Shown here piece by piece: positions 59,701 to 63,536 of a DNA stretch of 64,000 nucleotides (position 1 is the first letter of the stretch; the number at the start of each line of letters is the position of its first letter). Below the pieces are notes generated by a model that made no database searches, was not told the DNA's origin, and worked only from the letters and a program-made list of their open reading frames with translations. This DNA comes from an uncultured Gammaproteobacteria bacterium (GTDB taxonomy: Bacteria; Pseudomonadota; Gammaproteobacteria; JAURND01), in NCBI GenBank assembly GCA_963714975.1, contig CAVQQD010000002.1:1152001-1216000 (forward strand). The letters are read 5' to 3'. Position numbers and translations under genes: made by a program.

Positions 59701-62700
59701 GACCTAAAAGAACCCACTCGCTCCTCTGGTAGTCAAACCTCTGAGCCCACTTCACCGAGACCAGAGAAAGCAAGCATTCCCGATAGCCAGGCGTTACTGG
59801 AGGCTTATGATACACAAGCAAAAATAGCGCAAGAATCCAGCTTACAATTACGCTTTGCTCAATCCAAATACGGTCTAGTCGACGACAAGTCTTATCCCGG
59901 TTGTAAAACCTTCCAAATGCCCTCGGTCTCGGCTTCTCTTATTGAGCGCACCCCACTACTGAGTAAGATCGCTCAGCAATTGCACGCTCAACCCAATATA
60001 ATCGTAGCTCAAGGCTTAGGCGGTGCGGGAAAAACTCAGCTAGCCAGCCGTTACGCACAACTGGCAGCCACAGCAGGCCAATCGTGTGGTGAACATAAAC
60101 TCAATTATCAAGTCGTACTGTGGATGCAGGCGGAGTGTGATTTAGGAACCCAATTTCAGTGGGCCGCCGAAGCCTTTTGTAATCGCCCCGGATTATCCCC
60201 ACAAGAAGCGACCAACCAAGTCTACGAGTATTTACGGGATAAAAAAGCGCTGATTGTCTTTGACAATGTCCCAAACATTGAAACCATTCGCCCATTCTTT
60301 CCACCAGCGAGAACCGGTATGATAGGCGGATTCTTTGAAAGTCGTCGCCACAATCATGTGTTGATCACCAGTCGTAACCCCATGACTGATAATCTGCCTG
60401 CATTAGCCATTACCGGCTTTACCCAAGAAGAAGCCCACGACTATATCAAAAAACGCTTGCCCGAGGCTAAAGACACTGAAATTACTCGATTAACCGACAC
60501 CATCACCACCTTACCACTGACGCTTTCCCATGCCGTAGCCTATATTGCCGCAGACTATTGTTCCTTAGCAGATTACCCGAAGCATTTTGTTCTGCACCAA
60601 TTCAGCATTGATCATTTACTGGTGGATATGGAACAAGAAAGCCAAACCTTGCTCACCACTTTTTTACTCAGCATCGCCCGCCTGCAACGTCAGCATCCCT
60701 GTGTAATTAGCATTTTGCAAACGACTGCATTTTTAGCATCCGAGGACATTCCACTGGAATTGCTGCATAGCCCAAAAATAAATCCCCAAGCCCATTATAC
60801 GGCGCAACAATTGCAAGCCGGGGTGAATGCATTAATTCAAGCGGCGTTGCTACAACCGGGGAAAACTGAGCACCATATCACCATTCACCGCTTAGTGCAG
60901 CAAGTGGCGCGGCATCAAATGTCAGTGACCGAGCAAGCCCAATGTCTCCCCCGAGTGATGCAATTGTTAGGGGAAAGCTATCCTGAAGACGAAGTGGGTC
61001 ATGCCGCGGATGCTAAATGTAAAGACTTACTCCCGCATTTCAATAAATTGATTGAGCAGGTGGAAGCGAGTAACCGTGAACCTGATGTCCATCAGGCTTT
61101 AATCCTAATGCGTTTGGGTCAAGTGAGTCACGACTTAGGTAATCCACACCAAGCCCGTGATTTTTTACAGCGCTCATTACCTATTTTTGAAACACACTAT
61201 GGACCGGATCATCCCCAGGTGGCTTATGTTTTGCGGTATTTAGGAAATGTTTATAGTTATCTGGGAGAGGACAGGAAAGCCTATTCATTACTCAAGAGAG
61301 CCTTGATCATATTTGAGAACCACCAAGATTCTCTGCCACTAAGTAGAGTTTTTAGTATTTTAGGTTACGTGGGTTTACGCTTAGGTGATGCGCTGCAAGC
61401 CCGTGATTTACTGCGCCGCGCACTGAAAATTCAACGAGAGTACTATAGTGATTATCGTCAAGAGCAGGGTTATGAGCATTGGCGAGTGGCAGATACTTTA
61501 TTAAGTTTATCGGAAGCTTATCAAGCATTAGGCGATTATCCACAACAACGGGATTTATTGCTGCAAGCTCTAGCCATTGCTGAAAAACATTATGGTCGCG
61601 AACACGCTACAGTGGCTGATATTTTAGCTAATTTAGCTAATGCGTATGGAAGCTTGGGGAATGCGCAAAAGCAACGCAATTTATTGCTGCAAGCATTGCC
61701 AATTCAAGAAAAAACCTATGGCCGTGAACACATTCAAGTGGCTTGGATTTTGGAGAATTTAGCCAATACCTATGGTGCCTTGGGTGATCCGAAAAAGAAA
61801 TGTGATTTATTACTGCAAACCTTAGCCATCGAGGAAAACTACTATGGCCCTGATCACTGGCGAGTGGCGATTACTTTAACTAATTTATCCATTGCGTATG
61901 GCAAGTTGGGTGAAGTGCAAAAGAAGTGCGACTTATTGTTGCGAGCATTAGCTATCAAGGAAAAACATTATGGTCGTGCTCATCCAGAAGTCGCTTATAC
62001 GCTAACCCATTTAGCAGTGGCTTATCAAGCGTTGCACCAACCCCAGGCCGCTTTACTTGCGGCTCAACGGGTGTATCACATTATGATGTTTTATCCTGGA
62101 TATGGAGAATTAAATCATATAACCCAATGTTATCTCAGACTTTTACAATTTCACGATTTTACTTTGGCACAATTGCGAGCGCCTTTAGAGCAAAAGGGAA
62201 GGAACAAAAAGACCACTGAGCGAAAAGAAGAAAAATCCTCTACCCCCAATTTGCCCCCTTCCACGGTAGTAACTTCGTCCAACCTATTTGCACCACCGTC
62301 AAACACAGCCACCCCAATCCTGGATGAAAAATTAGTCGGTCGCACTGTCGTAGGACTGGTGGATGCCCTAACTCGACATTTGGAAACCCATCATACGAAT
62401 GTTCGTTGGGATCACAATGCTGCCGTTACGTTTGCCAGTTGCCTGGTCAGTGCTTGTGGTAAAGGAATAGCGGAAATCCAAAGGGAATTTGAACATCCTG
62501 AAAATTACTCCATACCTCCAGTGTTAATGCCATTTTTGCGTGATTATATTGCTTTTAACCCCACCCTCTTAGAACTAGAAAAACAGCCAGCACTCGCACA
62601 GCGATTTAAAACCGCCTTGTGCAAAGGTGAAATAGAGAATTTACGCCAATCCTATGGCACGCTACCACCGGTACCTCCCAAACAAGAAAGTTCCTTCTGC

Positions 62701-62712
62701 CTGGTAATGTGA
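56776..62712 (+). CDS. 1978-aa kinase-like / OTU-like / NB-ARC / TPR protein with C-terminal CaaX (CLVM)
   Basis: DIDCLG...NMG...KIDAG; DGNNNCLFNAF...WSGGPEA...HW; GLGGAGKTQLA and LIVFDNV; TPR repeats L..AL.I.E..YG..H..VA..L.NL; ends FCLVM*. Confidence 0.85.
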   Translation: MSQEISKPPFFPIVRQQSDFKPLPEQGRLPGSTPCIQFFKESKTNSLWIGKCDLPAHSSYKFQPHYQQYKEWLGLALYHLLGISTAPRVALSFQIPSYYGEIPDEKNSPQLHLMSEYIQNFNSLDEHFVDYYRRAALKKKNYQITVPNNGKIELRGFGSAMAVANFLYDIDCLGKSSGNMGYVVEMDEQEQPFAKIVKIDAGQIFRFFDKIDDRIYDHDPRNRNMFFAPGMLRKSSDFILAKSLDHLDFNNLPGKSERAYVAVENKLFFVEKIMERRIEIPVSQKKIEELLSKINIKKSLESKEQSIYLIEEISINQLNLISSITGHTLHKNPYLLRYDELTEADQEEFSQTARRILQTPASTFKALIDHATPNGFTPTQANQLYNELLIRRSKFIAAYPEIGVALQQEIYEARQTLKMLLSTLVSPSSPSKSPIQNSEFLGDDKQRKVETSDSSSRVVESFSSGLSFLTSTSSSIASFSPNMSSPFIRLSNPSLSSNSIRFPQNDPLTTTTSGLLSLVDSPTVFRIMGDQKLSQHTIDGNNNCLFNAFAVGLMGLIAQGSLFSEEIFTKLATEKIKEEKAKLSKEQWDECLEKMQDYLQTKNPQASLAVQHSLAPWLRQIAVAKLADEHLGIRDSFTDELCGHILDGTPSDLLRDKSDFVQSFESIKQALLLKKPQEAQSLIAIRNFETEVRERIRTWFDEGIGFKLYREHMAKEEVWSGGPEARVLAEFLGITLILAHGHNPMRLDIGHECDFGQISTDNFTEAEYRQLRSKELILGKAWDPSHPVLKLAYVSESYLNQKLAELPAELSKKFSDARKMHYRPPAQSMLIHNPYSIHWITRSTWEGSFNVLSHSNIRDSKTTLSTFSSIENTQGKSPSTDYSVSESATPLPDEHKLKSPTTPASPSFVEIEEDEPAKIEFKQNLMGGFQSTTDPLETRPFLSNDQSHDSLSFIALSSRSSTESLSTASLSTTLWDLKEPTRSSGSQTSEPTSPRPEKASIPDSQALLEAYDTQAKIAQESSLQLRFAQSKYGLVDDKSYPGCKTFQMPSVSASLIERTPLLSKIAQQLHAQPNIIVAQGLGGAGKTQLASRYAQLAATAGQSCGEHKLNYQVVLWMQAECDLGTQFQWAAEAFCNRPGLSPQEATNQVYEYLRDKKALIVFDNVPNIETIRPFFPPARTGMIGGFFESRRHNHVLITSRNPMTDNLPALAITGFTQEEAHDYIKKRLPEAKDTEITRLTDTITTLPLTLSHAVAYIAADYCSLADYPKHFVLHQFSIDHLLVDMEQESQTLLTTFLLSIARLQRQHPCVISILQTTAFLASEDIPLELLHSPKINPQAHYTAQQLQAGVNALIQAALLQPGKTEHHITIHRLVQQVARHQMSVTEQAQCLPRVMQLLGESYPEDEVGHAADAKCKDLLPHFNKLIEQVEASNREPDVHQALILMRLGQVSHDLGNPHQARDFLQRSLPIFETHYGPDHPQVAYVLRYLGNVYSYLGEDRKAYSLLKRALIIFENHQDSLPLSRVFSILGYVGLRLGDALQARDLLRRALKIQREYYSDYRQEQGYEHWRVADTLLSLSEAYQALGDYPQQRDLLLQALAIAEKHYGREHATVADILANLANAYGSLGNAQKQRNLLLQALPIQEKTYGREHIQVAWILENLANTYGALGDPKKKCDLLLQTLAIEENYYGPDHWRVAITLTNLSIAYGKLGEVQKKCDLLLRALAIKEKHYGRAHPEVAYTLTHLAVAYQALHQPQAALLAAQRVYHIMMFYPGYGELNHITQCYLRLLQFHDFTLAQLRAPLEQKGRNKKTTERKEEKSSTPNLPPSTVVTSSNLFAPPSNTATPILDEKLVGRTVVGLVDALTRHLETHHTNVRWDHNAAVTFASCLVSACGKGIAEIQREFEHPENYSIPPVLMPFLRDYIAFNPTLLELEKQPALAQRFKTALCKGEIENLRQSYGTLPPVPPKQESSFCLVM

Positions 62713-62718
62713 GCGCGC

Positions 62719-63536
62719 TTATAAGATAAGACAGCTCTGATTAGCATTGTTGGGCTGCTCCGGCTCCGGCACTTCTCCTTGAGCTCGTTTTAACTCCAGA
62801 GCTTGCTTATTTTCCTTATTTTCAACACCCAGCACCAACTCTGGGGTTGATGTAGTAAAGAGTTGCCTTGCTAATTGCTTGGCAAAGATTGGATAATTTT
62901 TGGCGAAAGACAGCTCTGAATGCGAAGTGACATACTGGCTAATAAAAGTTTTGAGCTGGACTAGGGATTCCTTGTGATTCCAGATCCATCAGTAGGGTAT
63001 TAAATTGATTTTTACGCAAACTTCCAAGGACAGTGCCCACAAACGTATTGGCGGCTTGTGCGTCCCAGGCTACTCTAGGGTGCCTCGCAAGTTCTGCTTG
63101 CATCGCCTGCAAAAATTTCAAGACCGCTTGATGAAACGCTTGTCTTTTGAGCACACCATCGGCAGTAATCCCTAATTCAGCGACTAACTCAGCCGCGGTG
63201 GGAGACTGCTCTTCCTCTGCGGCTTTCCCTATGAGCGATAATTTAAGTCTCCTGAGTAGTAAACTTTGCCTGTAATGTTTTAAAGGCGTCAATGGACTCA
63301 CGTAATGCATAATTCGGTTTTAATTCCAAACTATCCAATGCTAAACCAGTTTTAGGACTCAGTTTACTGTTGCGAAACCATTCCTCAATCGCTGTACGCT
63401 CATACGTGTGACCGTCTACAGCAGTAACGGGATCGCGCATAACCTTGAGCGTAATCGGGCATCGATAAGCCTCAGGAATTTCTAAATTATTTACAGGATT
63501 ATTGACAGGTTTGGATCGTTTTTTTTCATCTTCCAT
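62719..63536 (-). CDS. U-box E3 ubiquitin ligase-like effector with C-terminal CaaX (CLIL); two apparent frameshifts
   Basis: IPEAYRCPITLKVMRDPV...DGHTYERTAIEEW......SPKTG......LKPNYALR U-box. A third frame reads ...PNNANQSCLIL* with stop at 62719-62721. Confidence 0.8.

Follow-up and report, generated by a model that had tools for sequence, protein, structure and literature searches.

A putative lipid-anchored U-box effector gene and its giant neighbour with a common C-terminal domain in an uncultured gammaproteobacterium

Two convergent genes lie near the end of the 64,000-nucleotide stretch analysed here (the window; contig CAVQQD010000002.1, positions 1,152,001 to 1,216,000) from the genome of an uncultured gammaproteobacterium (G000). 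One encodes a small protein with a U-box, the other a giant protein with an NTPase and tetratricopeptide (TPR) repeats, and both end in a CaaX box. Why should two such different genes close in the same way, and is the small one, which is spread over three reading frames, still a gene? An earlier sequence-only reading of the window had taken the pair for a ubiquitin writer and eraser, sent to host membranes by a shared targeting or translocation domain plus prenylation, and our analysis supports this interpretation in part. The reading that we favour, with moderate confidence, is that the U-box gene encodes an injected ligase whose CaaX box would provide a lipid anchor inside a eukaryotic host, and that the domain preceding this box belongs to a portable C-terminal cassette for localisation, which the giant protein and proteins bearing other heads also carry.

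The U-box gene occupies positions 63536-62722 on the reverse strand, with its stop codon at 62719-62721. Piece A (63536-63246; 97 aa) carries the U-box domain (63276-63479, residues 20-87 of this piece), which matched the Pfam profile PF04564 over nearly its whole length (positions 1-69 of 73; E 7.1e-19; 68.2 bits against a cut-off of 21.4), while piece B (63319-62942) and piece C (62988-62722, ending ...NQSCLIL) are further open frames on the same strand. A search with piece B as the query retrieved an intact orthologue of 265 aa (P0033), which has a precomputed U-box domain, scores 62.2 bits with PF04564 and ends TTCLIL. When P0033 was compared with the window by tblastn, three collinear matches were obtained, covering residues 2-92, 94-193 and 190-265 in frames +1, +2 and +3 with 65, 68 and 62% identity, respectively. 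Therefore, the U-box gene is broken twice, with a +1 shift each time. The first break lies at about 63244-63249, between P0033 residue 92, the last one matched in frame +1, and residue 94, the first one matched in frame +2. The second lies at about 62945-62965, where the matches overlap at residues 190-193. The sequence-only reading had placed the breaks at approximately 63250 and 62960, in agreement with this alignment, and its coordinates, frames, length (approximately 271 aa) and C-terminal residues for the gene were all correct. Read across the breaks, the protein comprises approximately 270 aa. A second close relative, P0035, is a 215-aa fragment that is 76% identical to P0033 and ends TTYLIL, with Tyr in place of Cys.

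The stop codon of the giant gene (TGA, 62710-62712) and that of the U-box gene on the other strand are separated by a spacer of 6 bp (62713-62718), as the sequence-only reading had stated. No terminator-like site was found at this convergent junction, and the RNA fold showed no unusual stability (z = +0.82). At the other end of the U-box gene, a palindromic repeat element with 28-nt arms (63578-63659; arms 82% complementary and 26 nt apart) is located 42 bp upstream of the start codon, in the expected promoter region.

The C-terminal regions of the two proteins had been proposed to align with each other. In a direct BLASTP comparison, piece B matched the C-terminus of the giant protein with 29.3 bits (E 1e-5; 18 of 64 residues identical, 28%), and piece C gave no match to this region. 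The sequence-only reading had also suggested a profile of the shared region. A phmmer search with the last 190 residues of the giant protein against 1.84 billion representatives yielded 31 proteins at E ≤ 1e-3. One of these, P0025, a repeat protein of 1359 aa matched in seven short stretches, was dropped as spurious ahead of all counts, and a hidden Markov model (HMM) of 131 positions was built from the 30 outside homologues only (34 domain instances). This profile matched the giant protein at 62275-62658 on the forward strand (128.2 bits, HMM positions 3-130) and the U-box gene at 62848-63196 on the reverse strand, with 57.1 bits in piece B (positions 3-86) and 24.9 bits in piece C (positions 85-121). 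Pieces B and C thus abut within the domain at HMM position 85/86, exactly at the second break. A six-frame scan of G000 (31,663 open reading frames (ORFs) of at least 35 aa) identified only the giant protein, piece B and piece C (E 9e-36, 2e-15 and 2e-5, respectively). The pairwise BLASTP comparison is weak, but the profile scores are significant genome-wide. The most conserved columns of the profile read WD..AA..F..TV..KG and PE..SIP..L..FI..Y..HP.L, and the two motif pairs aligned by the sequence-only reading sit on these columns (WD..AA..F..TV and SIP..L..FI..Y). A domain of approximately 125 residues, hereafter the tail domain, is thus common to the C-termini of the U-box protein and the giant protein. 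It has no match in Pfam or NCBIfam, and an Atlas search yielded no usable match. The best profile match in the PDB, to PP2A B'' (4mew, E 0.023), was too weak to use, and a match of piece B in another genome, G029 (E 5.6e-4), was to a Ppx/GppA-like housekeeping protein and was rejected as chance.

Both proteins end in a sequence that satisfies the CaaX criterion (Cys at position -4, two aliphatic residues and a permitted X), namely CLIL in the U-box protein (62722-62733, reverse strand) and CLVM in the giant protein (62698-62709, forward strand). X = L favours geranylgeranylation and X = M farnesylation. The box is kept as CLIL in P0033, altered to YLIL in P0035, and kept as CLVM and CLIM in the relatives of the giant protein, P0001 and P0008. 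The enrichment of CaaX ends proposed as a check by the sequence-only reading was found in the family. Among 31 proteins (P0001-P0031 without P0025, plus P0033), 13 have a strict CaaX end, compared with 19 of the 3185 stop-to-stop ORFs of at least 100 aa in G000 (0.6%), and Cys at position -4 is present in 14 of the 31 and in 72 of the 3185, respectively.

The 19 strict-CaaX ORFs of the background are distributed over several contigs and may represent a sizeable set of prenylated effectors. Four of them end in CIIL (C2:269026-270039, C2:422185-422805, C2:454588-457536 and C3:724804-725499) and one more ends in CLVM (C3:569165-570421). At another locus (L013; G000:C1:35683-38916), a U-box ORF of 297 aa (1492-2385) is directly followed by a 224-aa ORF ending CLMM (2490-3164), beside an insertion sequence (IS)-type transposase. 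In addition, an open frame of 671 aa (G000:C2:281761-282489) has two U-box matches, a layout resembling that of LubX.

The tail domain is located near the C-terminus of every family member, with 2-88 residues after it, and is preceded by a wide variety of modules, all of them signalling domains of eukaryotic type. PF04564 was matched by 10 of the 11 members of the U-box alignment (A3), the eleventh being the truncated P0035. Other members carry PARP with SH3, PARP alone, TIR, a dual-specificity phosphatase (DSPc), a ubiquitin-like module (two members), ankyrin repeats with patatin and OTU, NACHT or NB-ARC with TPR, or WD40 ahead of the domain. In uncultured bacteria the cassette thus accompanies no fewer than nine enzyme architectures. 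All 30 relatives examined come from metagenome or genome records and are named only "hypothetical protein" or, in one cluster mate, "TPR repeat protein". One member, P0015, which contains STAND, TPR and the tail domain, has no CaaX and carries a FYVE finger (PF01363, E 7e-19, residues 1778-1852) after the tail domain, which is another membrane-lipid anchor. Some of the members lacking CaaX end 2-3 residues past the domain and may be cut gene models, and others end in serine-rich tails. In the tails of U-box members (P0006, P0012 and P0028), long serine runs close several of the proteins, and the CSAAV at the end of P0006 may be a CaaaX variant of five residues.

A tree of 35 tail-domain rows, the backbone of which is poorly resolved, placed the giant protein with P0001 and P0008 (support 99/96) and P0033 and P0035 on a long branch of their own, whereas the tail domains of P0015 and of the U-box protein P0022 were sisters (91/82). 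Constraining the 11 U-box rows to a single group lowers the log-likelihood by 27.5 units (approximately unbiased test, p 0.015; the group was named after the tree was seen). Therefore, the tail domain has recombined with different heads.

Whether the frame breaks of the U-box gene lie in the organism or in its assembly determines whether a ligase is made at all. The assembly consists of 3 contigs (2.56 Mb) and is 93.75% complete, and we examined six long housekeeping frames in it. Those of rpoB, rpoC and a leuS-like gene (856 aa) are intact. In contrast, dnaE is split over two frames (G000:C3:766866-769917), with the switch inside the conserved GPGRGS..SLVAY motif, ileS is split over two frames (G000:C3:515518-518006) and a second ileS-like synthetase gene is split over three (G000:C3:159994-162354), giving four breaks in approximately 18.3 kb, or approximately 0.22 per kb. 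Accessory genes near the locus, namely a histidine kinase gene in the window and genes for a hybrid kinase and a non-ribosomal peptide synthetase (NRPS) just past it, are split at similar density. At this rate, two breaks are expected in approximately 1.4% of 0.8-kb genes and none in approximately 27% of 5.9-kb genes; therefore, the pattern at the locus is compatible with assembly indels. Because essential genes such as dnaE and ileS are frameshifted too, both breaks in the U-box gene are most likely assembly indels, and the gene is therefore probably intact in the organism. The earlier advice to polish the frameshifts fits this picture. More generally, frameshifts in this assembly should not be taken as gene decay, and apparently dead genes here need read-level checks.

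The alternative, that both frameshifts are real and that the organism has ceased to make the ligase, bears on the condition of the gene and not on its design, and we regard it as somewhat unlikely. The U-box gene has two breaks within 0.8 kb, compared with none in the adjoining 5.9-kb gene, and there are other damaged or partial copies at the locus, such as a partial paralogue of the giant gene (52005-55134) that is split in two frames beside an IS110 transposase gene; the split NRPS and histidine-kinase genes just past the window point the same way. However, single-copy essential genes are broken alike, which is impossible in a living cell, and all three pieces are 62-68% identical to the intact P0033, with no stop inside the matched parts. 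Just past the window (L028; G000:C2:1215400-1230000), the hybrid histidine kinase gene occupies two frames, and the formyltransferase-NRPS cluster of the window (16722-24637) recurs there as a second copy in fragments.

If the protein is made, is there a route by which it could leave the cell? Dot/Icm genes are present in G000, all above cut-offs: DotA (118 bits), DotI/IcmL (203 bits) and DotH/IcmK (274 bits). Two different open frames (582 and 397 aa; G000:C3:552247-554842) make up the DotA match, and the break between them may be another assembly indel. A survey of the class with a domain-only profile (A2; 400 scored genomes) detected the tail domain in three genomes. G000 and G002 belong to one family, and the third, G347, to a different one; the tail-domain protein of G347 has 246 aa and ends CSLQ. 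DotA is present in all three of these genomes, two of which are kin, compared with 95 of the 400 class genomes. A phylum-wide sample of 401 genomes contained the tail domain in G000 only, no match was obtained among 72,556 plasmids, and no related locus was found when P0035 was used as a query against metagenome contigs.

Where tail-domain genes do occur, they tend to sit together and beside a giant gene. On metagenome contig L029, a mini-ORF comprising the domain and CVMM, a gene encoding PARP, the domain and CVMS, and a giant homologue running off the contig end are arranged in a row. P0015 and P0022 (U-box plus tail domain) are each encoded on one contig of exactly 21,643 bp, and this equal length alone suggests that they share a contig. 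In G002, the giant P0008, which ends CLIM, is the only tail-domain copy and has an Hsp70-like neighbour downstream.

These features are consistent with the following scheme. The U-box gene would encode an effector of approximately 270 residues for the Dot/Icm-type (type IVB) secretion system of this uncultured gammaproteobacterium, with a predicted layout of an N-terminal U-box E3 ubiquitin ligase, a helical linker, the tail domain of approximately 125 residues and a flexible, acidic, proline-rich tail of approximately 40 residues (containing GEVPEPEQP) ending CLIL. This tail only resembles known delivery signals. Inside a eukaryotic, probably protist, host cell, host enzymes would prenylate the cysteine of the CaaX box, and the ligase would then sit on a host membrane. 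The tail domain would form the membrane-proximal half of a portable cassette consisting of the domain, a short tail and a lipid anchor, which evolution may have attached to many enzyme modules of eukaryotic type and also to the giant STAND-TPR protein next door. The U-box, the domain homology, the enrichment of CaaX, the intact orthologue, the Dot/Icm genes and the indels in essential genes are direct observations; that the protein is translocated, prenylated and placed on a membrane, and what the tail domain contributes, we infer.

Several observations weigh against this scheme. A strict CaaX end is absent from 18 of the 31 family members. The sequence-only reading had named homologues ending without CaaX as evidence that would count against it, and the outcome on this point is divided: the family as a whole is enriched, whereas among the 11 outside U-box members P0033 alone has a canonical CaaX, with Tyr for Cys in the close fragment P0035. 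The charge of the tail domain is near neutral (median +1, isoelectric point 8.05; 31 domain instances); therefore, there is no sign of the basic patch that is usual in phosphoinositide binders. Two breaks in a gene of 0.8 kb are themselves uncommon at the rate seen in essential genes (approximately 1.4% per gene), leaving room for real decay, and the public reads yielded one run (0.05 share of words), the sole piece of which was a 151-base contig on 62300-62401, outside both breaks.

The giant gene (56776-62712, forward strand) encodes a protein of 1978 aa, in which an N-terminal domain, an OTU-like stretch, a STAND NTPase, TPR repeats, the tail domain and the CaaX box follow one another up to the end, ...SSFCLVM. 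The NACHT/NB-ARC-type NTPase (59959-60459) contains the Walker A motif GLGGAGKTQLA, which was read directly. In Pfam, NACHT and NB-ARC scored just below cut-off (23.5 and 18.1 bits) and DUF7779 above it (38.7 bits), and the NCBIfam model FxSxx_TPR gave 269 bits, below its cut-off of 300. The TPR repeats (61054-61725) matched TPR_12 (E 3.8e-41) and TPR_10 (E 5.7e-38). Thus, the giant protein is a STAND NTPase with a NACHT/NB-ARC-type P-loop and TPR repeats.

Its designation as a deubiquitinase by the sequence-only reading did not hold up as well. When residues 509-908 were compared with PDB sequences, the two top matches were OTU proteases; both alignments fall on the catalytic Cys loop, and both are weak (LotA/Lpg2248, 7w54, E 0.016; a viral OTU, 6dx5, E 0.032). 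In the weak PDB alignment, a possible Cys loop, DGNNNCLFNAF (58390-58422, forward strand), aligns to both catalytic Cys loops of LotA, a member of the Lot family of OTU deubiquitinases; unlike LotA, however, the giant protein has no confirmed His loop, and membership in this family is not established. Pfam gave no OTU match for residues 509-908 at E ≤ 10, and BLASTP found no likeness between the giant protein and P0013, the OTU of which is confirmed by Pfam. Because the giant relatives P0008 and P0015 are without Pfam OTU and P0008 is approximately 600 residues shorter, a deubiquitinase is not part of the conserved design.

What, then, does the tail domain do in both neighbours? Besides localisation, it could act in homotypic docking, making the giant membrane-anchored STAND (NLR-like) protein and small neighbour enzymes associate inside the host like death-fold or TIR domains in eukaryotic signalosomes. 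This is unlikely in our judgement, although the row of three genes on L029, the direct adjacency of the sole two copies in G000, and the sister relationship and presumed co-location of the P0015 giant and the P0022 U-box protein would all fit, and there is precedent for an NLR gene having a motif in common with the effector gene beside it (bioRxiv 10.1101/2020.01.06.895854). Local duplication and domain shuffling would account for such clustering just as well, the two tail domains of the window are only 28% identical and far apart in the tree, the contig of P0015 and P0022 is shared only if equal size means identity, and in G002 the giant is the only copy, with an Hsp70-like neighbour instead of a second tail-domain gene. 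A fuller version, in which an injected, lipid-anchored STAND giant gathers interchangeable neighbour-encoded enzymes (a U-box ligase here, PARP elsewhere) on a host membrane through such docking, seems rather unlikely. It would amount to a bacterial "signalosome" assembled inside a eukaryotic host cell. The writer/eraser idea, that the giant protein contains an OTU deubiquitinase and that this enzyme and the U-box ligase oppose or regulate each other on the same membrane in the manner of a LubX-like metaeffector, draws on the convergent arrangement with the same tail domain and CaaX, on the two OTU proteases heading the PDB matches and on the precedent of LubX as a U-box metaeffector (PMC5770618). 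We consider it improbable, given the missing Pfam and P0013 likeness, the PDB E values of only 0.016 and 0.032, the relatives without OTU and the fact that partner enzymes elsewhere are PARP and not ubiquitin enzymes.

The tail domain could instead be a secretion signal recognised by the type IV coupling complex. Such domains are known, for example the BID domain of the Bartonella Beps and the XVIPCD of Xanthomonas type IV secretion system toxins. Its constant position near the C-terminus behind variable enzymatic modules and the presence of DotA in all three tail-domain genomes agree with this explanation. However, a general translocation domain, one of the roles suggested by the sequence-only reading, is hard to reconcile with only two copies in G000 despite its Dot/Icm genes, one copy in G002, and a domain found in 3 of the 400 class genomes compared with DotA in 95; moreover, the enrichment of CaaX and the FYVE finger after the domain would be left unexplained. 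Thus, this role is quite improbable. It is very improbable that the genes form an anti-phage defence system, in which a STAND NTPase and its effector partners would work inside the bacterium and not in a host. Defence systems often contain STAND NTPases with TPR or WD40 repeats, TIR, patatin and PARP, and the TIR of P0029 matches bSEFIR in PADLOC (E 8e-10). PADLOC gave only a generic TPR match for the giant protein (E 5e-6), however, and none for P0033, P0027 or P0008, and it is only in the cytoplasm of a eukaryote that CaaX, FYVE, SH3, U-box and ubiquitin-like modules would be meaningful.

A lipid-anchored U-box ligase, the reading that we prefer, has partial parallels among characterised effectors. 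LubX (lpg2830) and GobX (lpg2455) of Legionella pneumophila are U-box E3 effectors delivered by Dot/Icm; LubX acts on another effector, and GobX is placed on the Golgi membrane through host S-palmitoylation of Cys175 (PMC5770618). The window gene would resemble both as a bacterial U-box E3 ligase and GobX in being lipidated by the host. It differs from them in having a single U-box, a tail domain and a C-terminal CaaX in place of palmitoylation; no sequence relation beyond the U-box was seen, and the activity is here a predicted one. In the Pels, which include the F-box protein AnkB, the C-terminal CaaX is used by host prenyltransferases and anchors the injected effectors to the vacuole membrane, for which the Cys is required (PMC13081727; PMC2916131). 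The proposed use of CaaX as a host prenylation signal is the same. In the abstract and one passage of PMC13081727, however, no common domain ahead of CaaX is described for the seven Pels, and the U-box is mentioned only where eukaryote-like domains in general are enumerated, whereas in the family analysed here CaaX is coupled to one conserved domain of 125 residues over many architectures.

The idea of a compact module common to effectors with unrelated enzymatic parts also has precedents. P4C, P4M, LED006, LED027 and LED035 are compact, C-terminal, helical phosphoinositide-binding modules that serve membrane targeting (PMC13435680). Unlike these modules, with which it was compared by sequence alone, the tail domain is without a Pfam, NCBIfam or PDB sequence match and is near neutral in charge. 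In fungal and bacterial amyloid signalling, NLR/STAND proteins share a short signalling motif with an adjacent effector gene (bioRxiv 10.1101/2020.01.06.895854), similar to the STAND NTPase with TPR repeats and its neighbour here, which carry the same terminal element. In the window, however, the shared element lies C-terminally in each protein, comprises a domain of 125 residues and is followed by a eukaryotic lipidation signal. Amyloid-signalling motifs comprise 20-40 residues and are located at the N-terminus of the NLR.

No paper listed in our literature search, which covered titles and abstract openings (supplementary files being outside its scope), described the tail domain or a U-box effector with a CaaX end. 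Pathogens of the Legionella type are known to use U-box ligases, prenylation by the host and C-terminal modules for localisation; what the present family would add is their combination in one portable cassette built around an undescribed domain. If the tail domain decides the host membrane or partner, it could help to recognise effectors of uncultured intracellular bacteria in metagenome data and offer cell biology a new targeting module, and the family would show for the first time that giant STAND/NLR-like proteins can be injected as effectors and anchored by a lipid.

The giant gene has one further conserved part. Its residues 1-440 (56776-58100) comprise an unnamed N-terminal domain of approximately 430 aa, which is conserved in P0008, P0015 and the giant homologue on L029 and contains the motifs HLMS, D.DCLG...N.GY and KID.G.AF. 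This domain has no sequence match in Pfam, NCBIfam or the PDB; as a guess, it could be an atypical kinase-like fold. The partial paralogue at 52005-55134, upstream of the giant gene, corresponds to the first approximately 1050 residues of the giant protein; its N-terminal domain is 53% identical at the protein level, and the DNA of 52917-55134 is 89.8% identical to that of 57700-59921. A third copy of the N-terminal domain (49006-49551) is 37% identical, and the IS110 transposase gene (51043-52008) is located between the copies.

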